This document shows, piece after piece, positions 4,001 through 53,700 of a stretch of 64,000 nt of DNA. Source of the stretch: an uncultured Candidatus Saccharibacteria bacterium (GTDB taxonomy: Bacteria > Patescibacteriota > Minisyncoccia > Phycocordibacterales > PALSA-1337). The stretch spans positions 18,594-82,593 of the forward strand of contig CAYQFS010000003.1 of assembly GCA_964416985.1 (NCBI GenBank), given 5' to 3'. Made by a program: the position numbers and the translations under genes. The notes beneath the pieces were generated by a model. The model saw only the letters and a list, made by a program, of their open reading frames with translations. It was not told the origin of the DNA and made no database searches. Every line of letters starts with the position of its first letter. The first letter of the stretch is position 1.

Positions 4001-4478
4001 TCTTCGCGCCATGATTATTGCTCTCATTCTCATTGTTGCTACTCTCGTTATTCAATTTAATTCATTCAGAAAAGCTCTCATTGTTCTCGTGCCGATTCCT
4101 CTTGCTTTGATTGGGGTATTTATGGGTATGGCGATCTTTGATGTTCCATTGAGCTTCCCAGCTTTGATCGGAGTTCTGGCCCTCTTTGGTATCGTGGTCA
4201 AGAACGCCATCATCCTTGTTGATAAGATAAATATAAATATTAAAAGTGGAATTGAGTTCGAAGATGCTGTCGCTGACGCCGGTAAGTCCCGTCTCGAGGC
4301 AATCTTCATTACCTCAATCTGTACCATCATGGGTATCCTTCCTGTAACATTCTCAAATGAGTTCTGGATGGCCCTCGGCAGCTCTGTCATCTTTGGCCTT
4401 ACGCTCTCGTCCTTCCTCACGCTCTTTCTCGTCCCGGCGTTCTATCTTGTGTTTGTTAAAAGAGATGACAATATGTAG
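1077..4478 (+). CDS. RND family efflux transporter permease (AcrB/HAE1-like), 1133 aa
   Basis: Length, 12-TM architecture and two large periplasmic loops; conserved RND segments (ALGLLVDDAIVVV, FLPLLF..GIMGEY). Directly follows the MFP gene. Confidence 0.9.
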   Translation: MSNNNEHSSDSRYLDRLEFRPELRNMWLYFFIKNFRVVILLILIISGWGIYSFLSLPRESNPEVKIPIAIVSTLYPGASPSDVEEFVTKKIEAELSGLKGLKKLTSSSLNSLSSITVEFNAKEDKDDSIRRLRDKLGNIQSKISTDAEDPQVIEVSLDDTPIWSISITGPYDGFTLRKYAEEIQDELEKIPGVREIQVSGGDEKEFEIAYIPEKLLFYGITSQDANQIVIATNTAIPAGNFETGKFVVPIRSDARTVTASTIASIPVGHTDSGATIFLRDIARVSETALKKTAYSRFSIGGSEPRNSVNLSLIKRQGSSVLDTVDTAKATVEKTIATFPPGVKYDVSFDLASQVREDFDQLGHDFLLTVLLVAIILFLIVGLKEAFVAGLAIPLVFSVTFGVLLSLGITLNFLSSFSLILALGLLVDDAIVVVSATKQYLNSGKFTPEEAVLLVLNDFKWVLTTTTLATVWAFLPLLFASGIMGEYLKSIPITISITLTASLLIALMVNHPLAAVLERIRLTKRFFFIIEAVIILVAGVMFYIGSILAIVLGVIALVIEGYLIWWYEKDGKRILRENALKMEREWKSDDLIRQKLHEQGSKQHSSFSSKLIHGIVNFHQFLPIYEKYFKYYILDKKRRKRVISSVIVLFVFAVGLVATGIVRTEFFPVSDQQYIYVDMKAPVGTRLSETDIHIREVEEKLLGYEDVSNFSTIVGRPSANGGFVGGNGSSNLGSITITLKKKEERKMKSYELADIIRNDLSKIQDPSLSIEVSIPAGGPPAGAAFEGRIMGDNLDVLTQIVADLRPQLASIPGVINVGVSQKDSVPQYTFVLDPTRMEQHDLNAAYVGSVLRTAVAGIELTKIIKDEKEVKLIATFDQSTIPNLAAIQNMQILNMRKQPVFLKDVATIELKPAVDVITRIDQKRTILLSAGVDSSTNGQLVLAQFQKKIADYNMPSGYQIVFGGENEQNAESVMSILRAMIIALILIVATLVIQFNSFRKALIVLVPIPLALIGVFMGMAIFDVPLSFPALIGVLALFGIVVKNAIILVDKININIKSGIEFEDAVADAGKSRLEAIFITSICTIMGILPVTFSNEFWMALGSSVIFGLTLSSFLTLFLVPAFYLVFVKRDDNM

Positions 4479-6332: not shown

Positions 6333-7904
6333 TCAATTTTTGAGAGGCAATGAGAATGAGAACTGGCTTCCTTTACCCGCCCCTTCGGAGGCTACCCAGA
6401 TTTTGCCCTCATGGTGCTGGATGATCTTTTTTGATATGAAGAGGCCGATTCCCATGCCCTCAGTGTCGGAGGAACGGGCTTTGTCGGAGCGGTAGAATTT
6501 TGAGAAGATCATTTTGAGCTCGCTTTCCATCATTCCAATTCCGTCGTCTTTGACCGAGAAGACGGCGTTGCCATTATCGTTGAAAGAAGTTACTGAAATC
6601 TTTCCTGATTCTGGAGTGTAATGAATTGCATTCTCAATAAAAGTTTGGATAACGAATTTAATTCGGAGTTCATCACAGGGAGCTGTGAGTCCCGGCGTGT
6701 AATTTGTTTCAACAAACAATTTTTTTGTCGTGATCTGGAGAGAAAGGGAAGCAATTACTTCTGCAGCAAGAGCGGAGATGTCGTGAGATGTTTTCTGGTA
6801 ATCGTAATCACCCTTTTCTGTTTCTGAGGCATTTGCGAGGATGTCTGTTAGCTCGATGAGCTTGCTGTTTGAATTTTTGATATATTCAATCTGGGCTAGA
6901 CCTTCATTTGAAAGATTTTCAGCCTTGAGATTTTCTGTCGCCCATTTTATGGTGGTCAAAGGCGTGCGGAATTTGTGGGTGACTGTTGTAATGAATTCGT
7001 ACTTGAGAATATCTGTGGTACGGAGATTTTTCCAGACGAGGGTGCTGATTGTTGCCACGAGAATTCCCGATACAAGAGCCGTAACCCATGAAGGATATCC
7101 TGGATATGCTGCCACGATAAATGTGTGGAGATAATTGAGGATGAGGACAATTGCCCCGACTACAATAACAATAATTGAATAGAAAAAGGCCTGCTGCGCG
7201 ATCACTTTTACGTTAAGAAGGCCGTATTTTACGGCACCATAGAGAAACGGGACAGCGAACATAAGGCCGAATGCCATGCCCCAGAGAGGGTCAATCTGTA
7301 TGTTGTAGACGAGAAAGTTTGGGATGAGACCAACAAGGTAGGTGACAATGATGGCATAGGTGAAATATTTGTACTGGAGTCTCTGGTCATGCTCCACCGT
7401 CTTTTTCCAAGCCGTTGCCATTTTGTAGGTTATGTAAGGAACAATGAGGACATAGAGGTAGACAACCCGAATCCAATTAAATACTCCTGGAACATAATAA
7501 TTTGGGAAATACATTTTTGGTTCTGAAGGAAGGAAGAAAAGATTAGGATAGAATGAAAAGAAGATCGTGACGCCAATCGCAACTCCATATGAAATGGCGA
7601 TTATATAACGGTCTTTCCATTCCTGATCAAGAAGAGCAAGAACACTATGAAGATTGAATGCTCCAACAAAAAGCATTGAGAGATTGAACATGAGGATAGT
7701 TCGTGAAAGAAGAGGATCGGTGATGTTGACCCCGATTACATGTGAGACGACAAAGAAAAGAGCAGCGACACCGGTGAGGCCAAGGGCGATGTTTGCACGG
7801 CGTCGCGATCCATTCAAAAAGACGAAGAGAGAAAGTCCAGCAAGGGCGACTGCTGAAGCGATACAGATGATATTGTGCGCGACAAGATGAAAGCTTGCGA
7901 ACAT
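6333..7904 (-). CDS. Sensor histidine kinase with multi-TM N-terminal sensor domain (HisKA + HATPase_c)
   Basis: H-box TTVTHKFRTPLTTIKWATENL, and N/G1/G2 boxes (DDGIGMMESELKMIFSKFYR, GMGIGLFISKKIIQHHEGKIWV). The N-terminal half has about 8 TM helices. No response regulator is adjacent. Confidence 0.85.
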   Translation of the reverse strand: MFASFHLVAHNIICIASAVALAGLSLFVFLNGSRRRANIALGLTGVAALFFVVSHVIGVNITDPLLSRTILMFNLSMLFVGAFNLHSVLALLDQEWKDRYIIAISYGVAIGVTIFFSFYPNLFFLPSEPKMYFPNYYVPGVFNWIRVVYLYVLIVPYITYKMATAWKKTVEHDQRLQYKYFTYAIIVTYLVGLIPNFLVYNIQIDPLWGMAFGLMFAVPFLYGAVKYGLLNVKVIAQQAFFYSIIVIVVGAIVLILNYLHTFIVAAYPGYPSWVTALVSGILVATISTLVWKNLRTTDILKYEFITTVTHKFRTPLTTIKWATENLKAENLSNEGLAQIEYIKNSNSKLIELTDILANASETEKGDYDYQKTSHDISALAAEVIASLSLQITTKKLFVETNYTPGLTAPCDELRIKFVIQTFIENAIHYTPESGKISVTSFNDNGNAVFSVKDDGIGMMESELKMIFSKFYRSDKARSSDTEGMGIGLFISKKIIQHHEGKIWVASEGAGKGSQFSFSLPLKN

Positions 7905-7910
7905 GGTTTT

Positions 7911-8279
7911 TTAAAGAGGCATATCGATCGAGAACGCACCAGGACCTGTGAGGAGAAGGCACAGTGAAATGACGAGGAGGATGAAGTAATAGTTGATACC
8001 ATTTGTGAGAAATGCTCGGTTTTTAACCTTACGAACAAGATGAGTGAGGAAGACGAGCGTGGTGAGAAGGGCAATGAGCTGCGTCAGGAAACCAATTACG
8101 AGGCAGATTCCGAGGAAGGCCTCAAATGCGACGCAAGCCATTTTCATTCCCTTGCTTTCTTTGTCCTCGCGGCGGGTTCGTCGGTATGCCCAGAAAAGAA
8201 AGACAATTCCTAGAGTGAGCCGAAGGAGTAATGGGGAGAATTCCTGGTATGTAAGGAGCCATGGAAAAAGTGAAAGCAT
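7911..8279 (-). CDS. DoxX-family small membrane protein
   Basis: 122 aa and 4 TM, with overall similarity to the DoxX/SURF4 family. Weak call. Confidence 0.45.
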   Translation of the reverse strand: MLSLFPWLLTYQEFSPLLLRLTLGIVFLFWAYRRTRREDKESKGMKMACVAFEAFLGICLVIGFLTQLIALLTTLVFLTHLVRKVKNRAFLTNGINYYFILLVISLCLLLTGPGAFSIDMPL

Positions 8280-27152: not shown

Positions 27153-27665
27153 TTACAGCCCTTTGTCTCTGTAAAGTTTTTGTAACCGGGCCATTCCACG
27201 ATGGATATGGACAGCTATGACATTTTTCTTTTCGTGGGTTATTTTTGAAATTTCGCTAAGTGAAAGTCCTTTGAAGAATTTCATCACAAGTGTTGTACGG
27301 TACGGCTCTGGAACTTGTTTCAAAAGTTTCTGTGCTTCATGGGCGTCAATAGTATGTATCATCTCTTCGGTATCATTGAATCCAGGGTCAAATCCTTTTT
27401 CGTGAAGATCTTCGAGAGAATCGAGAGGCTTTCGTTTTCGGTATTCATCGATGACAAGGTTTGAAGTTATTTTGTAAAGAAGGGCACGCATGTTCTTGAC
27501 TGGTTTTACAGCCATGTACTGCCATGCCTTTATAAATGCTTCCTGGAGAATATCTGTCGAGAGCTCACGGTCATTGAGCTTGAAAAAGCTGAAGCGGAAG
27601 AGGGAATCAGCATATTTTTTGTATGCTTCATTGAATTTTTTGTGCCTCGAAGTTTCTTTTTCCAT
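27153..27665 (-). CDS. ECF-type (group 4) sigma-70 family RNA polymerase sigma factor
   Basis: Region 2 (ILQEAFIKAWQY...LYKITSNLVIDEYRKRK) and region 4 HTH (LSLSEISKITHEKKNVIAVHIHRGMARLQKL). Start placed at MEKETS. Confidence 0.75.
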   Translation of the reverse strand: MEKETSRHKKFNEAYKKYADSLFRFSFFKLNDRELSTDILQEAFIKAWQYMAVKPVKNMRALLYKITSNLVIDEYRKRKPLDSLEDLHEKGFDPGFNDTEEMIHTIDAHEAQKLLKQVPEPYRTTLVMKFFKGLSLSEISKITHEKKNVIAVHIHRGMARLQKLYRDKGL

Positions 27666-27695
27666 AGGCATCACTACCATGCTATCATATATCAT

Positions 27696-30008
27696 ATGTT
27701 TGCACATAGACTCGCTGCCTTTGACCTTGATGGAACTCTTTCAGAGAGTAAATCTCCCATGACTATGGAGATGGGCGAGCTCGTCTATAAACTTTCTCAA
27801 ATTACAAAAGTGGCTATCATCTCTGGGGGAAGTTTCGCTCAGTACGAAGAACAGTTTTTGCCGTTCATCAAGCCATCAGCAAATATTATCCTTCTTCCAA
27901 CTGATGGAAGTCAGAGGTTTGAGTACGATGAAAAAAAGAAGCAATGGATACGTGTCGACAAGGAAATTTTTCCTGAAGCACTGAAGGCTGAGGTAATGAA
28001 GGTTTTGACTCAGATTATTTCTTCACGACGTTTTGACATTCCCCAAAATCCCGTGGGGAATTATCTTGAGGATCGTGAAACAGAGATCAATTTCTCGGCC
28101 CTTGGTCAGAGAGCCTCTATAGATGCAAAAAAAATCTGGGATCCTCATCAGGAAAAAAGAATGAAGATAAAGGAGGAGATAGAAAAAAGAGTAAAGGGAA
28201 TTACCGCAAGTGTGGCTGGCACAACATCGATCGACATTCTTCCTTCTGGTTTTGACAAGGCTTTTGGACTCTGCCTTTACTTGAAAAAGATGGGAATGGA
28301 GAAAAAAGATCTTATTTTTATTGGTGACGCTATTTTCCCTGGTGGGAATGACTACTCAGTCTTTGAGGCAGGAATTGAATCAATCAAAACTGACGGGCCT
28401 TCTCATACTGCCGCACTACTTCGCTCCTGGCTTTCAGGGGGAGAGGGAACTTCGATTTTTCCAAAAAATCCAGTGGCTTTCTTTTGCACCGAGTACGCCC
28501 TCGAAGACAATCATCACATGTACGCAGGAGGACTGGGAATTCTTGCGGCTGACTATCTTCTCGAGGTCGCTGACAAAAAGATTCCATTTATCGCTCTTGG
28601 GCTCAATTATGATCCAGAAAAAATAAAGGATTTTGCAATTTATCATCACGAAGGACAGCCACTCATTGTCTCGGTGCCGATTAGCGATCACATTCTTCAT
28701 GCACAGGTGTGGCATCGGATTCTTTCCGAAAATGTGCATATTTTTCTTCTTGATACCAATATTGAAAAAAATAATGAAGAGCGAAGAAAGATAACATCTC
28801 TTCTGTATGATCCTCATTTCTATACTCGCGTTCAGCAGCAGATTCTTCTCGGAATTGGGGGGATGCAGATACTCAAAAAACTTGGCATCAATCCCTCCAT
28901 CTATCATCTGAATGAAGGACATACGGCTTTTGGTGGTGTGGCTGTAATGGTAGAAAAGAAAGAAGACACGTCAAAAATTGTAGCCACGAAGCACACTATT
29001 CTTTCTGAGGCTGGGCTTCATATTCCTCGAAAAGATTTTTCTGTTCTTCTCGGAGTATATTGCAAAGAATTTGGCGTTGATCCGGCTGACGTGTTTGAAA
29101 AAGGAAAGTACGAGCTTGATCCCGATATTTTTTCAACTACAAAGTTCGTTATGAACATTTCAAACAGGAAAAACAGTGTGAGTACTCTCCATGCAGTTTT
29201 TGAAAAGAGACGACATCCTCATAGTCTTCTCATTCCAATTACCAATGGTGTCTATGAAAAAAGATGGCAGGCGAAAGAACTCCTTGCTCGCGACAGAGAT
29301 ATTTCTGACAGGGATCTTTGGAAGATAAAAAGAAAATTGAGGTCCAATCTTTTTAACTATCTCGAGGAAAATCATGGGAAAGAATTGAATCCTGATATCT
29401 GTACTGTTGTGTGGGCACGAAGGTTCGCTGCCTACAAAAGGCCATTTCTCCTCTTTTCTGATTACGAGAGAATTATAAAACTTCTCTCAAACCAGGAGCA
29501 CCCTGTTCAGTTCATCATTTCAGGAAAAGCTCATGATGCCGACGAAGAAGGTAAGGAAATTGTAAGAAAAATAACCGCTCTCTCTGAAGATCCAGCAACT
29601 CATGGAAGAGTTGTCTATATTCCACATTATTCTCTCGATGTTGCCCGTGAGCTCGTTCGTGGTGCCGATATTTGGCTCAATACCCCTGAACGAGGAAAAG
29701 AAGCCTGCGGTACAAGCGGCATGAAGGCGGCCCTTAATGGTTCATTGCAGTGTAGTATTTCTGATGGCTGGGTTGATGAGGTTAATTGGGGAGGGCGGGG
29801 ATGGATTCTTCCCGAAGAAAATACGGCCCACGTTCTCTACGACCTTCTCGAGCACGAAATTCTTCCGGATTTCTATGGAGTTTCGGATGGAGGAGTCCCA
29901 CATCAATGGATAAATAAGATGCGCTCGACAATTGAGCTCGTCGAAAAGACGTATACGACTTCTCATATGCTTGATCGCTATATGAAAAACCTCTATTTTC
30001 TGGTATAA
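27696..30008 (+). CDS. Fusion protein: N-terminal eukaryotic-type phosphomannomutase (PMM, HAD-IIB) domain + C-terminal alpha-glucan (glycogen/maltodextrin) phosphorylase domain
   Basis: N-term: FDLDGTLSE...KVAIISGGSFAQYEEQ...FGDAIFPGGNDYSVFE parallels eukaryotic PMM (DVDGTL, VGGSD, FGDKTMPGGNDHEIF). C-term: GGLGILAADYL and the PLP-lysine motif GTSGMKAALNG of GT35 phosphorylases. Confidence 0.75.
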   Translation: MFAHRLAAFDLDGTLSESKSPMTMEMGELVYKLSQITKVAIISGGSFAQYEEQFLPFIKPSANIILLPTDGSQRFEYDEKKKQWIRVDKEIFPEALKAEVMKVLTQIISSRRFDIPQNPVGNYLEDRETEINFSALGQRASIDAKKIWDPHQEKRMKIKEEIEKRVKGITASVAGTTSIDILPSGFDKAFGLCLYLKKMGMEKKDLIFIGDAIFPGGNDYSVFEAGIESIKTDGPSHTAALLRSWLSGGEGTSIFPKNPVAFFCTEYALEDNHHMYAGGLGILAADYLLEVADKKIPFIALGLNYDPEKIKDFAIYHHEGQPLIVSVPISDHILHAQVWHRILSENVHIFLLDTNIEKNNEERRKITSLLYDPHFYTRVQQQILLGIGGMQILKKLGINPSIYHLNEGHTAFGGVAVMVEKKEDTSKIVATKHTILSEAGLHIPRKDFSVLLGVYCKEFGVDPADVFEKGKYELDPDIFSTTKFVMNISNRKNSVSTLHAVFEKRRHPHSLLIPITNGVYEKRWQAKELLARDRDISDRDLWKIKRKLRSNLFNYLEENHGKELNPDICTVVWARRFAAYKRPFLLFSDYERIIKLLSNQEHPVQFIISGKAHDADEEGKEIVRKITALSEDPATHGRVVYIPHYSLDVARELVRGADIWLNTPERGKEACGTSGMKAALNGSLQCSISDGWVDEVNWGGRGWILPEENTAHVLYDLLEHEILPDFYGVSDGGVPHQWINKMRSTIELVEKTYTTSHMLDRYMKNLYFLV

Positions 30009-30012
30009 TCTT

Positions 30013-31530
30013 ATGTACATGCCAATTTTCCGCCTCAAGAAAAGTCTCAAAATCCTCTTCGTTGGCGCAGAAGCCGCTCCTTTTGCAAAAGTGGGGGGTG
30101 TAGGCTCCGTAATGTACTCTTTGCCAAAAGCTCTTGCCGAGCTCGGCCACGATGCTCGTGTGATGATTCCGCGGTATCTTTCGATCGAAGATAGCAAATT
30201 TTCCCTCACCATGGAGCACAAAGAGCTCAGAGTCCCAACAGGGAATGAAGAGGGACCGGAATTTCTCATTTGTAATGTAAAGAAATGCGATCCTGGAATC
30301 TCTGGTGGAGCAGTCACAACCTACTTTCTCGAAAACCAGGAATACTATGAACAAAGAGCAAACGTTCACGGTTATGCCGATGATTCGACTCGGTGGGCAC
30401 TTCTTTGTCGTGGAGTTCTCGAATTTATCAGCAAGTCATCTTCGTGGGTTCCAGATGTTGTTGTTTCTCTCGACTGGCAGGCAGGCCTTCTTCCTGATTA
30501 CATAAAGACTGTGTACAAGTCGGACCCGATTCTTTCAAAAATCTCTACAGTTTTTTCAATCCATAACCTGTATTTCCAGGGAATGTTCGATCATCATTTT
30601 GTTTCTGAAATGGATTTTGATGATGGCCACTCTCCGATTCCCGGTTTTAACAACCCTCGTCTCGCAAAAATAAATTCAATGCGAAGGGGAATCATGCACG
30701 CTGATATCGTAAATACCGTTTCTCCAAATTATGCCAAAGAAATTATGACAAAAGAATACGGAGAACTTCTCGATGAACTTCTTCGCGAGAGAAAGGCAGT
30801 ACTTTCAGGAATATTAAATGGTATCGACTACTCTGTGTGGGATCCAAAAAACAATAGCCATGTTGCATTTCCTTATAATGAAAAAAGTCTTTCGGAACGG
30901 GCCAAAAATAAAAAGGCTCTCCAGGAACGTTTTGGACTTCCGGCTAAAGAAGACGTTTTTCTTGTTTCTATAGTCGGACGTCTCGCAAAACAAAAAGGTC
31001 TTGATCTTCTCACAAACACGATCGAAGTTCTTCTCCAAGAATTACCCCTACAGCTCGTAGTCGTGGGGGAGGGTGATTCTGAGTTTATGAGTCTTTTTCA
31101 TGATCTTGAAACAAAGTATCCAAAACAGGTTGCGACTCATCTAAAATACGATTCAGTTCTTCCTCATATGGCTTTTGCTGGAGCTGATGTAGTGCTTGTC
31201 CCATCTCGTTTTGAACCATGTGGTCTTGTTCAAATGGAAGCGATGCGAATGGGATGTATTCCGATTGTCCGGAAGACAGGAGGTCTTGCAGACAGTGTTG
31301 AGGATTATAATCCTGACAAACAGACAGGAACTGGCTTTGTTTTTGAAAAATTCGATTCATCTTCTCTTATGATTGCTCTCATTAGAGCTTTCGAAGATTT
31401 TCGTGACAAGAAAAAGTGGCAGGGGCTTCAGAAGCGTGCCATGACTGAGGATTTCTCTTGGATACATTCAGCAAAAAAATACTCCGAACTTTTTGCTCGA
31501 GCTATCCAGATTCATGGCAAGAAAAACTAA
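30013..31530 (+). CDS. glgA: Glycogen (starch) synthase, GT5 family
   Basis: KILFVGAEAAPFAKVGGVGSV (KxGGL motif), a central GT-B fold, and C-terminal E....PSRFEPCGL. Confidence 0.9.
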   Translation: MYMPIFRLKKSLKILFVGAEAAPFAKVGGVGSVMYSLPKALAELGHDARVMIPRYLSIEDSKFSLTMEHKELRVPTGNEEGPEFLICNVKKCDPGISGGAVTTYFLENQEYYEQRANVHGYADDSTRWALLCRGVLEFISKSSSWVPDVVVSLDWQAGLLPDYIKTVYKSDPILSKISTVFSIHNLYFQGMFDHHFVSEMDFDDGHSPIPGFNNPRLAKINSMRRGIMHADIVNTVSPNYAKEIMTKEYGELLDELLRERKAVLSGILNGIDYSVWDPKNNSHVAFPYNEKSLSERAKNKKALQERFGLPAKEDVFLVSIVGRLAKQKGLDLLTNTIEVLLQELPLQLVVVGEGDSEFMSLFHDLETKYPKQVATHLKYDSVLPHMAFAGADVVLVPSRFEPCGLVQMEAMRMGCIPIVRKTGGLADSVEDYNPDKQTGTGFVFEKFDSSSLMIALIRAFEDFRDKKKWQGLQKRAMTEDFSWIHSAKKYSELFARAIQIHGKKN

Positions 31531-31554: not shown

Positions 31555-32955
31555 ATGAAATGGGCAAATTTTTTGCATATTTATCAACCTCCAACACAGA
31601 AACCAATCTGGGTGAGGCGCATTGCTGATGAATCCTACAGAAAAGTTTTTTCAGGTCTCAAAAATATTCCCCGAGCCCGCATTACATTAAATATGAATAG
31701 TGTCCTCTGTGACCTTCTCGCGGAAAACGGGGCTCAGGATGTAATCGACAACATACGGTTTCTGCTTGAAAGGGGGAATATCGAGCTTACCGGAAGTGCA
31801 AAATACCACGCTTTTCTTCCGCTCTTACCGGAGTCAGAAATTGAGCGCCAAATAAAGCTCAATGAAGAAGGACTAACAAAATATTTTGGAACTAGCTGGA
31901 AGAAAGGAGGCTTTTTCTCTCCCGAAATGGCATATTCAAAAAAGGTGGCGCAGGTCGCACAAAGACTCGGTTATAAATGGATCATTATTGATGAGCTCGC
32001 ATTTCCTAAGGGAAAAACTCTTTCTCGCGACGTGGTATATGAAATAGAGGGCATTAAGGATTTTTATGTATTTTTTAGAGAAAGAAATTTTTCTTTTAAA
32101 ATTCTTTCAGCTTCACAGCTTTCAACTCTACCAGCTATTCTTCGTTTTCTCGAACCCCGTTTCGGAAAAAATGAATACACAGTAACGGGGATGGATGGAG
32201 AAACGTTTGGTCATCACAGGCCAGGACTTGAAAAGCTTCTCTTCGATCTTCTCTCACATCAAAACATTGATCCGATTTCTCTTGGCGATGTCCTCAATCT
32301 TGGCTTAAAAAAGGAAAGTATCGAGCCGTGTTCCTCGACATGGGCTTCAATGCCGAACGATCTTGACAACCATGAGCCATTTTTGAGGTGGAATAATCCG
32401 AACAATGAAATTCAGCAGTATCAATGGAAATTGACAAATCTTGCCATTCAGATTGTCGGCCGTGATCAGGGTCAAACGTCACGTCTTATTCTCGATCACT
32501 CTCTTCACTCAGATCAGTACTGGTGGTCATCGGCACGGCCGTGGTGGAGTCTTGAAATGATTGAACGGGGAGCTTTTGACCTTAAAAATGTGGTTGATAC
32601 TTCAGAAAAAGCTACTGAAGCTGAAAAAGCTGAAGCGGCAGATCTTTATAAAAGGATTCTTTTTACCGGTTTTGAGTGGCAGAGAACAGGGAAGGTTGAT
32701 GAGATTTCGCGCACTGAAAATGAAGAAATTCGTGAGCGTCTCGAAGAAAAGGAAAAACTTTTCATTACACGAGAGGAATTTCAAGACATGATAAACAATC
32801 TTGCTGAACAAATGAAATCAGCCGCAGATTCACAGGAGTATCACCGTGCTTCGATGATAAAAGACCGCATGCGTGAGCTCGAAGAAGAGATGGAAAGGAA
32901 TGACAGAGGGGAGAGCAAAAATCAGCACAAACCAGGAGGGGATTTGATGTTTTAA
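31555..32955 (+). CDS. Glycoside hydrolase family 57 enzyme (alpha-glucan branching/amylase type) with C-terminal charged coiled-coil tail
   Basis: GH57 signatures: HIYQPP near the N-terminus, and catalytic MDGETFGHH. Confidence 0.75.
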   Translation: MKWANFLHIYQPPTQKPIWVRRIADESYRKVFSGLKNIPRARITLNMNSVLCDLLAENGAQDVIDNIRFLLERGNIELTGSAKYHAFLPLLPESEIERQIKLNEEGLTKYFGTSWKKGGFFSPEMAYSKKVAQVAQRLGYKWIIIDELAFPKGKTLSRDVVYEIEGIKDFYVFFRERNFSFKILSASQLSTLPAILRFLEPRFGKNEYTVTGMDGETFGHHRPGLEKLLFDLLSHQNIDPISLGDVLNLGLKKESIEPCSSTWASMPNDLDNHEPFLRWNNPNNEIQQYQWKLTNLAIQIVGRDQGQTSRLILDHSLHSDQYWWSSARPWWSLEMIERGAFDLKNVVDTSEKATEAEKAEAADLYKRILFTGFEWQRTGKVDEISRTENEEIRERLEEKEKLFITREEFQDMINNLAEQMKSAADSQEYHRASMIKDRMRELEEEMERNDRGESKNQHKPGGDLMF

Positions 32956-33521
32956 TTTTTGAACACCGGTGCGTCCTCGATCGAAGCCTCAGGAACTTTT
33001 TTATACAAAGGATTTTTGACGAGTGAAGGCACACCGTTTTTTTCTATGACATAATATGCAGCACCACGGAATTTTTTGAATTGACTATAGTCTGCATGGC
33101 CGGGAAGGGAAACAGGGTTCTTTTCTTCAAAATTGACCGGACTGTCGTCTGATGTGACAAACCAGACCTTCCCAGTATTGATAGCAAGGTGACCTGTCTC
33201 TTTTGGAATATGAACTTTGTCTCCAGCCTTTACTCTGAATGCTCGGAACGTTTCGACTTCGCCATCAACTATTTTTCCTTGAAGGATGACAATTCCTTCA
33301 CCTTGGAGAACTGTGTAGACTTCTTCGAGGTCTCCGACATGGTAATGGCCATAAGTCTTTATGTATTCGCCTCCGATAGTGCCACTTTCCCATACGGTGA
33401 TATTGGTCCGGGGAGTGCCTCCACGAATCATATAATAATGAATCTCGGGCCCCGCCGTTCCGGGACTCATGAGAACATCCTGCATTTCTTTGTGACTGCG
33501 TGTGGCAAATGGTTGTAACAT
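32952..33521 (-). CDS. Cupin-type glucose-6-phosphate isomerase (archaeal-type PGI)
   Basis: TYGHYH..DLEEVY and HIPKETGHLAIN correspond to the metal-binding T.GH.H...E.Y and H motifs of Pyrococcus cupin PGI. Start at the internal Met (MLQPFATRS). Confidence 0.75.
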   Translation of the reverse strand: MLQPFATRSHKEMQDVLMSPGTAGPEIHYYMIRGGTPRTNITVWESGTIGGEYIKTYGHYHVGDLEEVYTVLQGEGIVILQGKIVDGEVETFRAFRVKAGDKVHIPKETGHLAINTGKVWFVTSDDSPVNFEEKNPVSLPGHADYSQFKKFRGAAYYVIEKNGVPSLVKNPLYKKVPEASIEDAPVFKN

Positions 33522-33562
33522 CCCTACATAGTAACAGATTGTTGAGGTATAATAAATACAAC

Positions 33563-34162
33563 ATGTCCAAGGCAAAAGGCTCTCGAAAAAGTGGAATCAG
33601 AAGACTGAGTAGGATGCGCGGCGCTGCTCTTGCGGGGGATCTTTTCATTATTGCAATTGGAATTTTCATTGCCTACATTCTCGTGAGACTTGGAGCTGTC
33701 GATTTTTTTGTAAATGCCGTCCATGGTTACCACGCGGTAGCAAGTTTTATCGCTGGTATTTTCTTTACCTCAGCTTTCACTCTCGCTCCCGCATCAATTG
33801 CTTTGAGTCGTATTGCCGAGACGGCACCTATCTCGAGTGTTGCTCTCTGGGGAGCTCTCGGAGCGCTTGTCGGAGACATGATTCTTTTCTTCTTTGTTAA
33901 GGATAAATTTTATGATGATCTCATCAAGGCTATAAAACCCTCTGTCCGGCATCATATTTTCCGGTCGTTTCACCTCGGTTTCCTGAAATGGCTCTCACCA
34001 GTTATCGGGGCTCTCATCATCGCTTCACCTTTACCTGATGAACTCGGCATCGCCCTTCTTGGTGCATCAAAAGTGAAGCTCTCGGTTCTCGTTCCAATAG
34101 CATTTGTGATGAATATGATCGGAATCTGCCTTCTTTTGGGTCTTGTGCATATTTTCTTTTGA
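33563..34162 (+). CDS. Hypothetical polytopic membrane protein
   Basis: 5-6 TM helices. Start choice (33563 vs 33614) is uncertain. Confidence 0.4.
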   Translation: MSKAKGSRKSGIRRLSRMRGAALAGDLFIIAIGIFIAYILVRLGAVDFFVNAVHGYHAVASFIAGIFFTSAFTLAPASIALSRIAETAPISSVALWGALGALVGDMILFFFVKDKFYDDLIKAIKPSVRHHIFRSFHLGFLKWLSPVIGALIIASPLPDELGIALLGASKVKLSVLVPIAFVMNMIGICLLLGLVHIFF

Positions 34163-48497: not shown

Positions 48498-48866
48498 TTA
48501 TTTGGTGAGAGTTTTGTTGAGTATTGATTTAGCAGTGGGACTTTGGAGGCCTTTGCGCCATCCACCAAGCATTCGCCCTATCTCTTCTAGCTTTTCCGAG
48601 AGTTCTGTATATTTGTCAGTCGGAATGAGCTTGCTCTCCCAGGCTAGCTGATAAAAGAATTTAAGAGTGTCTACCTTCGTTATGGTCCGGCCGAGCATAA
48701 CAGTCTTGGCTTCTGGTGGCAGATAAATGCAAGAGAAACTGAATTCCAAAGTATCAAGAAATAAGTCTTCAATCTTCTGACCAATACCGAGACGTTCAAC
48801 GCGCGGAAAGTTCCTATGAATGGCTAACCAAAATTGGTATGCTTCCTTTTCCTTCAAAATCACCAC
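48498..48866 (-). CDS. avd: Avd-like accessory variability determinant (four-helix-bundle / 23S rRNA intervening-sequence protein family), GTG start, opposite strand to TR/RT
   Basis: 122 aa, with the ...FP..E..G...Q.... pattern; the C-terminal EEIGRMLGGWRKGL parallels Bordetella bAvd EVGRILGSWIARV. Located between the TR and the RT. Confidence 0.7.
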   Translation of the reverse strand: MVILKEKEAYQFWLAIHRNFPRVERLGIGQKIEDLFLDTLEFSFSCIYLPPEAKTVMLGRTITKVDTLKFFYQLAWESKLIPTDKYTELSEKLEEIGRMLGGWRKGLQSPTAKSILNKTLTK

Positions 48867-48877
48867 TGGAGAATTGC

Positions 48878-48887
48878 GGGGGGGGGG
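48878..48887. repeat. Homopolymeric G10 tract between the divergent avd start and the RT start (C10 in the avd 5'-UTR)
   Basis: gaattgcggggggggggtcgtc, seen directly. It lies inside the upstream extension of the RT ORF (which would read GGG) and 12 nt upstream of the avd GTG. Confidence 0.9.
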
Positions 48888-48910
48888 TCGTCATAGTCAT
48901 TTTAATTTTT

Positions 48911-49900
48911 GTGAAAAATAAAGGGGTTGCGTACAACCATATCATATCTCTCAAAAATATCCACGAAGCGTGGCGTGAATTTGTCTCTGGTAAAAAATAT
49001 AAAACCGATGTGGCAGAATTCCTGCTCAAACTCTCGGAGAATACTTATAAGCTTCACATTGATCTAAAAAATAAAATATATGTCCACGGACCGTACGAAG
49101 CCTTCGCGGTTAATGACCCAAAGCCGCGCAGTATCCATAAAGCGAGCGTGCGGGACCGTTTACTCCACCATGCTCTCTATCGCCAACTCTACCCTTATTT
49201 TGATCAGAAATTTATTCACGATTCCTATTCTTGCCGTGACTTCAAGGGGACGCATCGGGCATTGGAGCGCTTTATGCAATTTTCTTGCAAGGTTTCAAAG
49301 AGCAATAAACGCACTTGTTGGGTATTGAAATGTGATGTTCGTAAGTTCTTTGCTTCGGTGGATCATTCAGTTCTCATGACGATACTTAAAAAGCATATTT
49401 CTGATCCTGATATTATCAATCTTGTCGGTGGGGTAGTGGAGAGTTTTAAAAGTACTGGTCCGGGAAAGGGTTTGCCACTCGGTAATCTTACTTCGCAACT
49501 TCTGGTGAATGTTTATATGAATGAATTTGATCAATACGTAAAGCATATTCTCAAACAGAAGTTTTATATTCGCTATGCTGATGATTTTGTGATTATGCAT
49601 CATGACCGCATTACATTACTAGAAGTGTTACCGAAAATTCATGCTTTTCTTGGATCGGTCCTTAAACTACAGCTTCATCCCGATAAGGTTTCTATCGAGA
49701 CAGTTTCTTCTGGCATTGATTTTCTTGGCTGGATCCATTTTCCTAATCACCGTGTGTTGCGGACCACCACAAAAAGAAGAATGTTCAAGAATTTAAAAAT
49801 GACAGAGACAAAACGTGAGACACTTCAATCGTATCTTGGACTTTTAAAACACGGCAATACCCATAAGTTACAAAACTCAATAAATAAATTTAAGACATAA
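48911..49900 (+). CDS. DGR-type reverse transcriptase (track ORF 48839..49900; probable start GTG at 48911, downstream of the G-tract)
   Basis: RT motifs 1-7, including NIHEAWREF, the DGR-type GKGLPLGNLTSQLLVNVYMNEFD and IRYADDFVI (YxDD), around 330-353 aa. No maturase or endonuclease domain, so not group II. Confidence 0.9.
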   Translation: MKNKGVAYNHIISLKNIHEAWREFVSGKKYKTDVAEFLLKLSENTYKLHIDLKNKIYVHGPYEAFAVNDPKPRSIHKASVRDRLLHHALYRQLYPYFDQKFIHDSYSCRDFKGTHRALERFMQFSCKVSKSNKRTCWVLKCDVRKFFASVDHSVLMTILKKHISDPDIINLVGGVVESFKSTGPGKGLPLGNLTSQLLVNVYMNEFDQYVKHILKQKFYIRYADDFVIMHHDRITLLEVLPKIHAFLGSVLKLQLHPDKVSIETVSSGIDFLGWIHFPNHRVLRTTTKRRMFKNLKMTETKRETLQSYLGLLKHGNTHKLQNSINKFKT

Positions 49901-49953
49901 AAAATTATCCTCTGGAACTTCCTTTTTATTTTTTTAGGAATATAATTTTCTTT

Positions 49954-50781
49954 ATGCCACAAGAAATTACTATCACTGCTCCCCATAAAGATTTCGAATC
50001 AATCAAAAAGATTGATGAGAATGGCGTGGAATACTGGACAGCAAGGGAGCTTATGCCAATACTTGGGTATTCAAAGTGGCAGAATTTTGAAATAGTCATA
50101 AAAAAGGCTCAAGAAGCTTGCGTCAATAGCCGCCAGTTTCCCCAGGATCATTTTACTGAAGCCAGTAAATTGATCAAAATGGCTAAAGATGCTGTGCGTG
50201 AAATAAACGACTATAACCTTGATAGGTATGCCTGTTATTTAATTGCCCAAAACGGAGACTCTACTAAGAAAGAAATTGCCCTTGCCCAAACATATTTTGC
50301 GGTACAAACGCGTAACCAGGAGATGTTTAATAAACTTTCTGATGATGAGAAAAGAATACAAAGACGAGAGGAAGTAACTGACAGAAATAAACATCTTTTC
50401 AGTACGGCCAAACTTGCAGGCGTCTCAAATTTTGGAAAATTCAATGATGCAGGGTATAAAGGCCTCTATACCATGCCTCTTTCTGAAATTGAGAAGAGAA
50501 AGAAGGTAAAGAAAGGAGAATTACTCGATCGTGCAGGAAGTGTAGAACTTGGAGCCAATCTTTTTAGAATTACCCAGACAGAAGACAAAATCAAGAGAGA
50601 AAATATAAAAGGAGATACAGAAGCACAAAGAACACACTTTGATGTTGGAAAGAAAGTTCGTCAGACAATGAAAGAACTTGGCGGGGAAATGCCAGAAAAT
50701 CTCAAACCAGAAAGGCATATAAAGGAAATTAGGAAGAATAACAGATTCCTCAAAAAGAAATCACAAGCGAGAATAAAATAG
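49954..50781 (+). CDS. dinD: DinD-like protein (DNA-damage-inducible protein D family)
   Basis: GVEYWTARELMPILGYSKWQNFEIVIKKAQEAC and LDRYACYLIAQNGD closely parallel E. coli DinD segments (..WSARDL..LGY..W.NF...I.KA; LTRYACYLIVQN). Confidence 0.6.
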   Translation: MPQEITITAPHKDFESIKKIDENGVEYWTARELMPILGYSKWQNFEIVIKKAQEACVNSRQFPQDHFTEASKLIKMAKDAVREINDYNLDRYACYLIAQNGDSTKKEIALAQTYFAVQTRNQEMFNKLSDDEKRIQRREEVTDRNKHLFSTAKLAGVSNFGKFNDAGYKGLYTMPLSEIEKRKKVKKGELLDRAGSVELGANLFRITQTEDKIKRENIKGDTEAQRTHFDVGKKVRQTMKELGGEMPENLKPERHIKEIRKNNRFLKKKSQARIK

Positions 50782-50796
50782 TATTTTTAGCCAAAA

Positions 50797-53700
50797 ATGC
50801 TAAAATGGCATTTACGTATGGAAAAGAGCAAGCAAGCCCAAACCGAAGAGAAAATACTGGCTTTTTGGGAAGAAAAAAAGATATTCAAGAAAACCCTCGA
50901 CAAGGAATTTCCGAAGGGCGATTTTATCTTTTATGATGGACCACCATTTGCAACAGGAGAGCCACACTATGGTCACGTCGTCCCGGGAACAATCAAAGAC
51001 ATAATTCCTCGTTATAAAACGATGAAAGGCTATCGCGTCCGCAGGCGATGGGGTTGGGACTGTCATGGATTGCCGGTAGAAAATCTCATCGAAAAAGAGC
51101 TCGGTCTTAAATCAAAAAAAGATATCCTTGACTACGGTATTGGAAAGTTTAATGCAAAGGCCCAAGAAAGCGTCATGCGGTATGCTGATGACTGGAGAAG
51201 GATCATTCCTCGCCTCGGTCGTTTTGTCGACATGGAGGATGACTATCGAACAATGGATACACCATACACCGAGTCAGTGTGGTGGGCTTTTTCTGAACTC
51301 TATAAAAAGGGATTAATTTATGAAGGATTCAAGTCAATGAATCTTTGCCCTCGCTGTGAGACAACACTTTCGAACTTTGAGGTAAGTCAGGGGTACAAGG
51401 ATATAACGGATATTTCGGTTTTTGTTACATTTGAAATAGTCGATGAGCCGGGAACTTTTCTTCTCGCATGGACGACAACCCCGTGGACTCTTCCAGGAAA
51501 TGTAGCGCTCGCAGTGAATCCTTCAATTCAATATTCAAAAATAAAAATACATAATCAGCAGTTATACGTAGCAACACCACGACTTTCTGCTGTGAAAGTA
51601 GAATATACAGTTGTCTCTGAAATTTCAGGAAAAGATCTTATCGGAAAATCATACAAACCTGTTTTCCCTTACTATTTTTCTGATCAAAAATTAAAAAATA
51701 AAGAAAATGGTTGGAAAGTTTATGGTGCCGATTTTGTAACAACGGAAGACGGAACAGGGATCGTTCATATTGCCCCAGCTTTTGGAGCCGATGATTACGA
51801 ACTTTCACTGAAGCACAATCTGCCGTTTGTTCAGCATGTTGGAACGAATGGCCAGTTCAAGGCGGAGGTTACGGATTTTGCTGGTCAGGATGTAAAACCA
51901 AAAGATTCTCCAGAAGAAAAGGACAAGCACCAAAAAGCTGATATTGAGATTATCAAATATCTTGCAGCCCACGGAACTCTTTTTGCAAAAGAAAAACTTG
52001 TACACTCATATCCGCACTGCTGGAGATGTGATACTCCACTTCTCAATTACGCAGCCTCATCATGGTTTGTAAAGGTTACTGATCTGAAGGATAAGCTCGT
52101 CAAAGAAAATAAGAAAGTGGGGTGGATTCCTCCTGAAGTTGGTGAAGGGCGGTTTGGAAATTGGCTCATGGGTGCTCGGGACTGGGCAATTTCACGTTCA
52201 CGTTTTTGGGGAGCGCCTCTGCCGGTCTGGAAAGAAGAAACAACAGGGGAATGTCATGTTCTCTCGTCGATTGCCGATCTCAAAAAATACAGTCATGCAA
52301 GAAATACCTACTACGTGAGCCGACACGGAGAAGCGGAAAATAATGTAAAGATGATCATCAGTTCTCTCAAGGAAAATCCGCATCATTTGACCGACCTTGG
52401 AAAAAAGCAGGCGAAGGAAGCGGGGCAATGGCTCAAGGATAAACATATTGATCTCATTATCACATCTCCATTTGTTAGAACAAAGGAGACGGCTGAAATC
52501 ATTGCTCAGCAGATTGGATTTGATAAAAATAAGATTGTTTTTGACGAAAGACTTCGGGAGCTTGGGGCGGGAATCTGGAACGGGAAAAACTTCCATGATT
52601 TTGTAGCGCATCTCAAAGAAGAGGATCGCTTCGAAATTGCTCCAGAGGGAGGTGAACAGTATGCTGATATAAAAAAGCGTATGGGGGACATCCTCTATGA
52701 CCTCGAGCAGAAGCATAGTGGCAAAAATATTCTTCTCGTTTCTCATGATACGCCACTTTTTCTTCTTGAGACAGTCGCCCAAGGCCTCAATCGAAAGCAG
52801 TCGATAGAACTCCGAGGTCACAAGGATCATTTTAATGAAAATGCAAAGCCTCGAAAGCTCGAATTTCATCCCTTGCCGCATAACGCTGAGTACGAAGCCG
52901 ATCTCCATCGGCCGTTCATTGACGAAATTCCTCTCATCTCCGAAAAGGGAAACAAGCTCGTGCGAATTCCCGAAGTTTTTGACTGCTGGTTTGAGTCGGG
53001 TTCAATGCCGTTTGGAGAAGCTCATTATCCATTCCAAAAATGCGATTTCAATCCTAAGCCGGGTCCATTTACAAAAATTCTCGGAAAAACTAAAGGCTAT
53101 CCTGCTGATTTTATTGCAGAAGGACTTGACCAGACTCGTGGCTGGTTTTACTCGATGATGGTCCTTGGGGTCGCTCTTTTTGGCCGATCTCCTTACAAAA
53201 AAGTTGTGGTCAATGGTCTCGTCCTTGCTGAAGATGGTCGCAAGATGTCGAAGCGTGAGAAGAATTATCCCGACCTCATGCTTATTGTAAATAAATATGG
53301 AGCTGATGCTCTCCGCTACTTCCTCATGTCATCTCCGGTCGTTCATGCTCAAGATTTTTGTTTTTCTGAGAGGGGAGTTGATGAGGTAATGAAAAAGCAC
53401 ATTGGTCGACTCAACAACGTCGTGACATTCTATGAAATGTATGCGAGTGAAGCAACCGATCTCACGATCACAAGCACCGATCCTCTCGATCTTTGGATTG
53501 TTTCTCGATTAGCAGAGCTAGCCTTAGAAGTCACACATGGTCTTGAAAAATATGAAATCGACCGAGCATCACGTCCTTTTGCAGAATTTATTGACGACCT
53601 TTCAACGTGGTATATTCGCCGTTCACGAGATCGATTTAAGAGTGAAAATGTGGAAGACAAAAATCGAGCCCTCGCTACGACTCGAAAAGTCCTTCTCGAT

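Follow-up and report, generated by a model that had tools for sequence, protein, structure and literature searches.

The window analyzed in this work, which is the whole 64,000-nt stretch of DNA, contains a gene in which an N-terminal HAD-superfamily mutase domain resembling the alpha-phosphoglucomutase PgmH is fused to a C-terminal GT35 alpha-glucan phosphorylase. We estimate with a probability of about three in four that its product is a bifunctional glycogen-catabolic enzyme of Patescibacteria (CPR), which would convert glycogen and inorganic phosphate (Pi) into glucose-1-phosphate (G1P) and then glucose-6-phosphate (G6P), feeding the neighboring cupin-type glucose-6-phosphate isomerase (cPGI). 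Both enzyme activities, the specificity for glucose rather than mannose, and the catabolic direction are predictions, and the mutase activity is proposed from homology and gene context. No description of a GT35 phosphorylase fused to a HAD mutase was found in the literature searched, and the architecture, which is made of two known enzyme kinds, is apparently new.

The fusion gene forms one open frame of 770 amino acids, from the ATG at position 27696 to the stop at position 30008 (Table 1). The first-pass annotation described a single polypeptide with a domain boundary near residue 260, and both points hold, as the two domains of this ORF were matched by Pfam and by NCBIfam models, and the assembled sequence has neither a stop nor a frame break across positions 28450–28520. 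The motifs FDLDGTL (with D10 and D12), KVAIISGGS, GDAIFPGGNDYSVFE, and GTSGMKAALNG, which had been quoted for this protein, are present, except that the one given as FGDA reads FIGDA. An exact copy of the fusion protein exists in a public collection (P0001, on a 117-kb NCBI contig). The same architecture was found in 54 fused full-length homologues with 38–78% identity, which are distinct 90%-identity clusters from independent NCBI, JGI, ENA, and Logan assemblies. The occurrence of the same fused frame in all these clusters rules out an assembly chimera or a frameshift, and the fusion is genuine and conserved. The N-terminal truncations seen among the homologues are only apparent, because their gene calls start late. 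In databases these proteins are labeled "alpha-glucan family phosphorylase," "starch phosphorylase," or "HAD hydrolase," and such one-domain labels miss half of the function.

Table 1. Positions in the window of the fusion gene, its parts, and the neighboring genes
Feature	Position	Strand	Basis
pgmH-like HAD mutase::GT35 phosphorylase fusion gene	27696..30008	+	Uninterrupted frame; Pfam and NCBIfam match both halves
N-terminal domain, residues 1-247: HAD-IIB core and C2b-type cap (~85-187)	27696..28436	+	4BND match; AF2/Foldseek
Linker, ~residues 248-259 (SGGEGTSIFPKN)	28437..28472	+	Low pLDDT; variable among homologues
C-terminal domain, residues 260-770: minimal GT35 (TIGR02094-type, "clade 2"-like)	28473..30005	+	TIGR02094, 9L6I
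GlgA-type glycogen/starch synthase (GT5)	30013..31530	+	Glyco_transf_5 222.6 bits; Glycos_transf_1 73.9 bits
GH57-family enzyme (branching enzyme, glucanotransferase, or amylase)	31555..32955	+	PF03065 100.1 bits
Cupin-type glucose-6-phosphate isomerase-like gene	32952..33575	-	PF06560 GPI 68.7 bits

The Pfam scan of the fusion matched the phosphomannomutase (PMM) model PF03332 to residues 27–225 with 53.6 bits (cut-off 22.4), which is above the 33.2 bits of the Hydrolase_3 model and supports the earlier assignment of this domain to the PMM family rather than to generic HAD phosphatases. The HAD-IIB model TIGR01484 of NCBIfam gave 69.7 bits, and weak matches to S6PP and trehalose-PPase were also obtained. 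In a sequence search of the PDB, the best match was the alpha-phosphoglucomutase 4BND (116 bits, E 2e-32), whereas eukaryotic PMMs scored 72 bits or less. When the AF2 model of the domain (pLDDT 93.5) was used in Foldseek, 4BND was again first (E 3e-27, TM 0.79), the ranks 1–24 were all alpha-phosphoglucomutases (alpha-PGMs) or PMMs, with 22 PMM chains at ranks 3–24, and phosphatases appeared from rank 25. Hence, the earlier term "eukaryotic-type PMM" was right about the family and the fold, but the nearest characterized relative is PgmH of Lactococcus lactis (4BND). The latter is reportedly an "atypical" HAD-superfamily alpha-phosphoglucomutase. Since the domain is nearer to this type, PGM activity does not need to be explained as a side activity of a PMM. 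Measurable PGM activity is known for some PMM-type enzymes, such as P. falciparum HAD5 (PMC8808168).

The catalytic residues of the N-terminal domain are D10, which is the nucleophile (nt 27723–27725), D12, T14, S43, K188, D211, N218, and D219, and motif I, DxDx[T/V], is found as F9-D10-L11-D12-G13-T14. Every HAD catalytic motif is kept across the 54 fused homologues: D10 is present in at least 90% of them, D12 is invariant where the N-terminus was called, with the gaps reflecting miscalled gene starts, and S43, K188, D211, N218, and D219 of motifs II–IV (GDxxxxGGND) are invariant or at least 90% kept. Given this conservation of every catalytic residue in 54 lineages, a regulatory, noncatalytic N-terminal domain was rejected. 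In PMM2, the bisphosphate intermediate is bound at its second phosphate by the basic cap and clasp residues R21, R134, and R141 (PMC4263888). The position of R134 corresponds to R127 of the fusion, which is kept as R or K, and R127, K145, and R155 in the cap are invariant or nearly so among the fusions. The other two PMM2 residues are replaced by K19 and Q138, both as in 4BND, and the residue after Gln138 is not conserved among the fusions. The eukaryotic PMM1/PMM2 and the protist PMMs share the fold and the catalytic motifs with this domain, but their scores are lower, and PMM2 differs from it in the Arg21 and Arg141 positions. In contrast, L. lactis PgmH has the same size (~250 aa), the HAD core with a C2b cap, the DxD nucleophile motif, and the GGND motif, and it shares the signatures that set the domain apart from PMM2, namely Lys where PMM2 has the Arg21 clasp, SA[LI]GQ (SAIGQ in PgmH), WDP, and GTT. 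The differences from PgmH are the identity of only ~30% and the fact that PgmH is a stand-alone Firmicute enzyme, while the domain in Patescibacteria is covalently joined to a phosphorylase.

The assignment of the remaining part of the protein to GT35 phosphorylases with a PLP-lysine motif was confirmed by the match to the alpha-glucan phosphorylase model TIGR02094 (404.7 bits, cut-off 191.7) and by the presence of all catalytic residues; the Phosphorylase model PF00343 also matched (78.3 bits, cut-off 27). The score for NF041129, the equivalog model of Thermococcales maltodextrin phosphorylase, was 309.6 bits against a cut-off of 1500, and by this measure the domain is a related subfamily member and not an equivalog. 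The closest solved structure is that of the "clade 2" glycogen phosphorylase (GP) from Segatella copri (9L6I, 30% identity), in which the catalytic residues are H316, R507, R508, K513, and K609 (PMC12912991). The first four align to H433, R575, R576, and K581 of the fusion, among which R575, R576, and K581 would bind phosphate by this alignment. Of these four residues, only R575 varies among the 54 fusions, with at least 90% conservation. The K609 aligns to the PLP lysine K677 (nt 29724–29726) in EACGTSGMK677, which is invariant in the 54 sequences, and the position 671, beside the glucose-binding Gly, is occupied by Cys. The full-length AF2 model (pLDDT 90.8) has the GT-B fold with two Rossmann domains, like the solved phosphorylases, and the top Foldseek match was the S. 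copri enzyme (E ~1e-45), followed by the E. coli, rabbit, and human GPs. The domain is shorter than the S. copri enzyme (~510 aa vs. 852 aa), whose residues 1–115 and ~713–852 have no aligned equivalent in it.

The linker between the domains is flexible and contains the only stretch of the full-length model with pLDDT below 50 (residues 249–251), and it aligns with the N-terminal leader of stand-alone GlgP. In the homologues, the interval from T238 to E266 is 16–58 residues long, a spread of ~40 residues. This variability and the low-confidence stretch, together with the occurrence of both domain orders in relatives, fit co-localization and a fixed 1:1 stoichiometry of the two enzymes better than a fixed tunnel between them.

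The neighbors named in the first-pass annotation, which were GlgA, a GH57 enzyme, and a cupin PGI on the opposite strand, were all found by Pfam. The glgA gene starts 4 nt downstream from the fusion gene, and this synteny is kept in Patescibacteria loci. The GH57 gene is kept beside glgA, and its product has remote similarity to solved GH57 enzymes (E ~1e-5). The cPGI gene is convergent with the operon, its product is remotely similar to the Pyrococcus/Thermococcus cPGI structures (E 3e-7), and it belongs to the cluster both in the window and in loci L001/L002, L005, L006, L007, L017, and L038. The description of these genes as archaeal/eukaryote-flavored was loose: together they form a module conserved in Patescibacteria. 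Pfam scans of 56 ORFs of the window detected no PGM of the alpha-D-phosphohexomutase type. The ORFs covered were the fusion gene and its neighbors, together with all 50 ORFs of at least 150 aa that are not in nested or overlapping frames, except those at 50797–54297 and 58031–58705. A GlgC/NTP-transferase gene was found neither among the scanned ORFs of the window nor in the 10-kb flanks of L001–L007, and searches for promoters and terminators near the operon gave chance-level results.

Comparison of the gene context in loci of the homologues showed that both split and fused versions exist in related genomes, with the split halves inside the same cluster. In L003, glgP-glgA-GH57 is preceded, at a distance of 30 nt, by a stand-alone pgmH of 264 aa. 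The P0064 locus has a stand-alone pgmH that adjoins cPGI at the end of glgP-glgA-GH57, and in L038 pgmH is split and convergent, directly after glgP. The L008 locus of Saccharibacteria has the fused form, although the gene is cut by the contig end. Both L008 and L038 were among the matches listed in a contig search with the phosphorylase peptides EACGTSGM and GAD[IV]WLNTP; these matches were mostly unfused phosphorylases from outside the CPR (Acidobacteria and others), and they do not provide a fair census of the fused taxa. The reverse-order fusion, GlgP::PgmH, occurs in two lineages (P0117 and P0158), and the P0117 operon (L006) has the order pgi-glgA-GH57-glgP::pgmH. Further fusion partners of this mutase domain are GH130 mannoside phosphorylases (P0250, P0255) and mannose-6-phosphate isomerases (PMI-type cupins), so its partners are always neighbors of hexose-1-phosphate/hexose-6-phosphate interconversion. 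The N-terminal fusions are spread over several groups of an unbootstrapped tree, which together with the two orientations suggests selection rather than accident. On the other hand, the Patescibacteria clusters L004, L009, L012, and L017 have no pgmH within 10 kb, which indicates that the two genes are often, but not always, coupled. Overall, the series of split, fused, and reverse-fused forms provides Rosetta-stone support for a functional coupling of the two putative activities.

A comparable logic is known from Firmicutes, in which GH65 maltose/trehalose phosphorylases are encoded in operons with beta-phosphoglucomutases. In those operons, as in the GH130 fusions, a phosphorylase releases a hexose-1-phosphate, on which a small HAD mutase acts by shifting the phosphate to C6 for use in glycolysis. 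The GH65 systems use beta-G1P and a C1-cap beta-PGM, and the GH130 fusions mannose-1-phosphate, whereas here a retaining GT35 alpha-glucan phosphorylase and a mutase predicted to be alpha-specific, with a C2b cap, are parts of one polypeptide. In the proposed pathway, the PLP-dependent GT35 domain would convert alpha-1,4-glucan and phosphate to alpha-glucose-1-phosphate, the PgmH-like domain would convert it to glucose-6-phosphate through the Asp10 phospho-enzyme and a glucose-1,6-bisphosphate intermediate, and the neighboring cPGI would form fructose-6-phosphate (F6P). The glycogen to G1P to G6P to F6P route, which had been suggested from the gene content, is backed by the split loci, by the reverse-order fusion, and by the other phosphorylase and isomerase fusions, although the activities themselves are predicted. 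Most likely, the fusion came about when the stop codon and the short spacer that separated neighboring pgmH and glgP genes were lost, and it would secure the 1:1 co-expression and proximity of consecutive enzymes in the glgP-glgA-GH57(-pgi) operon.

The HAD-IIB proteins are mostly phosphatases, and sugar-phosphate phosphatases cannot be strictly separated from mutases by sequence alone. It could thus be considered that the N-terminal domain dephosphorylates a sugar phosphate, such as G1P, G6P, or glucose-1,6-bisphosphate, releasing glucose and recycling phosphate, which would make the protein a phosphate-catalytic "glucoamylase." Such a role would agree with the matches to Hydrolase_3, TIGR01484, S6PP, and trehalose-PPase, and with the DxD chemistry common to both kinds of enzymes. 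It is, however, improbable given that the phosphatase models gave lower scores than the PMM model, that the 24 best fold matches are all mutases, the first of them an alpha-PGM, and that the cap residues R127, K145, and R155, which putatively contact the second phosphate, are so well conserved. The recurrent linkage or fusion to the hexose-6-phosphate isomerases cPGI and PMI also speaks against it, because this linkage makes sense only if the product of the mutase is a hexose-6-phosphate. It is very improbable that the domain is a PMM specific for mannose and was joined to the phosphorylase by mere gene adjacency, for example in cell-envelope sugar synthesis, without metabolic coupling. The Pfam PMM match and the close relatives with the same motifs fused to GH130 enzymes and PMI are in line with this reading, and no positions that split glucose- from mannose-specific members were evident when stand-alone domains were aligned with those fused to GT35, GH130, or PMI partners. 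Since the PgmH-like clade includes members fused to mannose-pathway enzymes, the glucose specificity is suggested by context and not by diagnostic residues. Nevertheless, the GH130 and PMI fusions, too, join the domain to the enzyme of a neighboring step in the pathway, which suggests that the fusion partner tracks the substrate, with an alpha-glucan phosphorylase and a G6P isomerase as the partners here. The recurrence of the fusion in both orientations argues against adjacency without coupling, and the nearest characterized enzyme is annotated as an alpha-PGM. L. lactis PgmH is said to be glucose-specific and inactive on mannose phosphates.

The direction of the pathway has to be considered separately, because with GlgA in the operon the mutase could equally serve synthesis, from G6P to G1P. 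In this case the phosphorylase would extend or prime alpha-glucan chains with G1P, which would provide GlgA with primers or make an NDP-glucose pyrophosphorylase dispensable. The presence of GlgA and the GH57 enzyme and the lack of GlgC in the regions scanned are compatible with this direction, as is the reversibility of phosphorylases in vitro; for the S. copri enzyme, assays were run both ways (PMC12912991). However, the Pi/G1P ratios in vivo push GT35 phosphorylases toward degradation, and GlgA would still require an NDP-glucose donor, so that a pyrophosphorylase is presumably encoded elsewhere. We give the anabolic direction little credence. Also unlikely is a stronger proposal, in which the fusion is the sole PGM of these reduced genomes and truly channels its substrates, retaining G1P and glucose-1,6-bisphosphate, or else runs in reverse from G6P to alpha-glucan without a nucleotide sugar. 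If the reverse run were true, one polypeptide would provide a minimal ATP-free glycogen cycle in Patescibacteria.

The favored reading, a bifunctional catabolic enzyme, is biochemically unsurprising. Consecutive pathway enzymes are often fused, and therefore no concept is overturned. Alpha-PGM is in common use in in vitro synthetic enzymatic biosystems (PMC10521662), and a very compact natural phosphorylase-phosphoglucomutase of 770 aa could suit cell-free starch-to-G6P biosystems. The split, fused, and reverse-fused forms also link the PgmH-type HAD mutases, which have been little studied, to the phosphorolytic breakdown of sugars, where their partners are GT35 as well as GH130 enzymes. For Patescibacteria, whose reduced genomes have been annotated largely automatically, the fusion offers a concrete gene predicted to carry out the G1P/G6P step.

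The first-pass annotation had described a phosphomannomutase (PMM) domain joined to an alpha-glucan phosphorylase in one polypeptide, and the domain scan bore this out, with Pfam PMM and Phosphorylase both matched in one ORF. The gene is a single open frame of 770 codons from ATG to stop, and the frame proved unbroken across the junction at 28450-28520 in the window sequence. An alternative GTG start at 27642 would add only an unconserved leader, and the GC content is even over the region. The gene scan also recovered the neighbours that had been named: GlgA, a GH57 protein and an opposite-strand cupin-type glucose-6-phosphate isomerase (cPGI). The GH57 protein shows only remote likeness to solved GH57 enzymes (E ~1e-5) and may act as a branching enzyme, a transferase or an amylase; a UVR-motif match lies near its C terminus (residues 411-445), and likewise in its homologue from locus L004 (13209-14696). 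On the other side of the fusion gene is an ECF-type sigma factor gene. The fused gene likewise has a sigma-70 r2/r4 gene directly upstream in two other settings, divergent in L007 and on the same strand in L001/L002, so the sigma factor gene and the fusion gene may be linked in regulation. The remaining window consists of housekeeping genes typical of small genomes, and its RVT_1/Bro-N cassette may be a retroelement, either of the diversity-generating kind or of another.

Features of the window and arrangements of the mutase domain elsewhere (L, loci of homologues; P, homologous proteins)
Feature	Locus or protein	Position or length	Strand	Arrangement
RND efflux pump (AcrB-like)	window	1077-4478		at window start, with HlyD-like adaptor
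ECF-type sigma factor	window	27153-27707	-	divergent; annotated ATG overlaps fusion start by 12 nt
Fusion gene	window	27696-30008	+	mutase, then GlgP (28473-30005)
GlgA/GT5	window	30013-31530	+	downstream, 4-nt gap to fusion gene
GH57 protein	window	31555-32955	+	downstream of GlgA
Cupin-type PGI	window	32952-33575	-	convergent
Folate/thymidylate block	window	37969-45124		FolD, DHFR (-), CYTH, dCTP-deaminase-like, ThyA, SHMT
Reverse transcriptase cassette	window	48839-54297	+	RVT_1 (353 aa), Bro-N protein (49954-50781), 1166-aa ORF (50797-54297)
Mutase fused N-terminal to GlgP	window, L001/L002, L005, L007, L008
Mutase as separate gene	L003	264 aa		30 nt upstream of glgP
Mutase as separate gene	P0064 locus	257 aa		adjoins cPGI, at far end of cluster
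Mutase as separate gene	L038			convergent, directly after glgP
Mutase fused C-terminal to GlgP	P0117, P0158	P0117: L006 8001-10346		reverse order
Mutase not found within 10 kb	L004, L009, L012, L017
Mutase N-terminal to GH130 beta-mannoside (beta-1,4-mannooligosaccharide) phosphorylase	P0250, P0255, P0123	751, 643, 359 aa (P0123 partial)
Mutase with C-terminal PMI-type (mannose-6-phosphate isomerase) cupin	P0140, P0165, P0205	342-383 aa
Mutase with N-terminal histidine phosphatase/PGAM-like domain	P0175	492 aa
Mutase with Gmad2 domain	P0187

Searching 5.8 billion protein clusters recovered the identical protein in NCBI, on a 117-kb contig, together with more than 50 further full-length proteins carrying the same two Pfam domains. 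As these came from NCBI, JGI, ENA and Logan assemblies, an artefactual fusion was ruled out. End-to-end alignment of 54 of these homologues gave identities of 38-78%. Among the organisms given as their sources are 'Patescibacteria group bacterium' and 'Candidatus Paceibacterota bacterium', and a fused copy cut by the contig end (L008) is from a Candidatus Saccharibacteria MAG. The window itself is placed among Patescibacteria by its ArgRS, which shares 72% identity with that of a 'Patescibacteria group bacterium', 63% with Paceibacterota and 59% with Taylorbacteria.

The N-terminal domain matched Pfam PMM (PF03332; 53.6 bits, cut-off 22.4, residues 27-225) better than Hydrolase_3 (33.2 bits), which agrees with its earlier assignment as a PMM rather than a generic HAD phosphatase; HAD-IIB (TIGR01484) scored 69.7 bits. 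The best match among all PDB sequences is the 'atypical' alpha-phosphoglucomutase PgmH of Lactococcus lactis (4BND; 116 bits, E 2e-32, residues 5-246), with PMM2 (72 bits) and other PMMs well behind. The AlphaFold2 model of residues 1-250 (pLDDT 93.5, pTM 0.83) likewise retrieved 4BND as the top Foldseek hit (E 3e-27, TM 0.79), followed by 22 PMM chains, while HAD phosphatases and nucleotidases appeared only from rank 25 down. Set against the residue roles in PMM2 (PMC4263888), the domain retains D10 as nucleophile, D12, K188 as motif III lysine (K189 in PMM2) and R127 as cap arginine (R134 in PMM2), with K19 in place of the R21 clasp and Q138 in place of R141. The site for the second phosphate resembles that of PMMs only in part. 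Both substitutions, as well as the SA[LI]GQ, WDP and GTT signatures, are common to the domain and 4BND. PgmH is reportedly specific for glucose phosphates, according to Neves et al. in 2006. Among the 54 fusions D10, D12, T14, S43, K188, D211, N218 and D219, as well as the cap residues R127, K145 and R155, are invariant or nearly so. Motif I is seemingly missing in three gene calls (P0048, P0051, P0053); that of P0048 begins 18 codons too late, dropping DxD, and the upstream in-frame sequence in L007 is MPKLIVFDLDNTL. Just upstream of this fused gene, at ~7800-7985, L007 looks tRNA-gene-like by eye (GGTAGCTCAGTTGGTAGAGCG…GGTTCGAGTCC). The domain is a conserved member of the PgmH/PMM mutase family, predicted from its residues to be catalytically intact.

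The C-terminal domain scored 78.3 bits with Pfam Phosphorylase (PF00343) and 404.7 bits with TIGR02094 (cut-off 191.7, residues 315-768). By profile both halves belong to their families. Its closest solved relative is the 'clade 2' glycogen phosphorylase (GP) of Segatella copri (9L6I; 263 bits, 30% identity, Foldseek E ~1e-45), whose catalytic residues PLP-Lys609, H316, R507, R508 and K513 (PMC12912991) align to K677, H433, R575, R576 and K581. In the family R575 is at least 90% conserved and the other four are invariant. At ~510 aa the domain is unusually short compared with the 852-aa S. copri GP. Its start coincides with that of the stand-alone phosphorylases of Patescibacteria (496-590 aa), and therefore nothing was lost on fusion. 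Patescibacteria GT35 phosphorylases, including the unfused P0049-P0120, are in general minimal, at ~500-590 aa where characterised enzymes have ~800-850 aa, and in their EA[S/C]GTSGMK PLP motif Cys takes the place of Ser; hundreds of non-CPR genomes are also among the matches listed for the EACGTSGM peptide. Short phosphorylases with 33-36% identity to the query also occur on MAG contigs titled 'uncultured Pseudomonadales' (L010, L011, L013); their match spans are like those of the short Patescibacteria proteins, and therefore these bins may be mislabelled.

In Patescibacteria the order glgP-glgA-GH57, frequently accompanied by cPGI, forms a conserved module; among the matches listed (80 phosphorylase loci) it was confined to loci with Patescibacteria-group titles (Saccharibacteria, Saccharimonadia, Paceibacterota). 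The proposed search for split and fused versions in related genomes found both in this same module. The reversed domain order in two proteins necessarily reflects a separate fusion event; one of them ends a one-strand operon, pgi-glgA-GH57-glgP::pgmH, in L006. In an unbootstrapped NJ tree built from phosphorylase domains the N-terminal fusions fell into at least 4-5 groups interleaved with unfused proteins, which, in a tree of this kind, suggests that fusion or fission happened more than once. The linker of the fusion can be aligned to the leader at the N terminus of stand-alone GlgP (…ESH..FPK.PVAFF), which fits an origin by read-through between adjoining mutase and glgP genes.

When 1.84 billion representatives were scanned exhaustively by HMMER, the N-terminal domain had 2085 matches (272 with E <1e-30). 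The best 150 of these 2085 were mostly stand-alone proteins of ~250 aa, and the longer ones were fusions, the GT35 partner occurring in both orders. The GH130 fusions are a parallel pairing of phosphorylase and mutase, presumably for mannose-1-phosphate. Each phosphorylase or isomerase partner yields a hexose-1-phosphate or uses a hexose-6-phosphate, as a 1,6-mutase function of the HAD domain would lead one to expect. These partners are hard to reconcile with a phosphatase, which is an improbable reading of the domain; the PGAM-like and Gmad2 partners are neutral on this question. The mutase domains in mannose contexts have motifs in common with those in glucan contexts, and therefore sugar specificity is unreadable from sequence and is taken from the fusion partner. 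That the domain is a mannose-specific PMM, its fusion being incidental, appears very improbable.

We favour, with a probability of about 0.75, a predicted series from glucan through glucose-1-phosphate (G1P) and glucose-6-phosphate (G6P) to fructose-6-phosphate (F6P). The PLP site would catalyse (glucan)n + Pi -> (glucan)n-1 + alpha-G1P, the HAD site alpha-G1P + E-Asp10~P -> glucose-1,6-bisphosphate -> G6P + E-Asp10~P, and the adjoining cPGI would convert G6P to F6P. Operation of the fusion in the anabolic direction is unlikely. The gain from fusion is probably stoichiometric co-expression and proximity. In the full-length model (pLDDT 90.8, pTM only 0.70) each domain is confidently predicted but linker residues 249-251 fall below a pLDDT of 50, and the T238-E266 interval, which includes the linker, is 16 to 58 residues long depending on the homologue; this variable, low-confidence linker and the existence of both domain orders give no pointer to a fixed inter-domain tunnel.

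No description of the PgmH::GlgP architecture was found in the searchable literature, and database labels of these proteins name one half only. Both halves are known families and the architecture is the new part; as consecutive enzymes are often found fused, it should cause specialists little surprise. The finding is of use for annotating the carbon metabolism of Patescibacteria, and the protein itself would be of use as a compact bifunctional enzyme; in the little-studied PgmH-like HAD clade the proteins with PMI and PGAM-like partners represent further sugar-phosphate pathway fusions.
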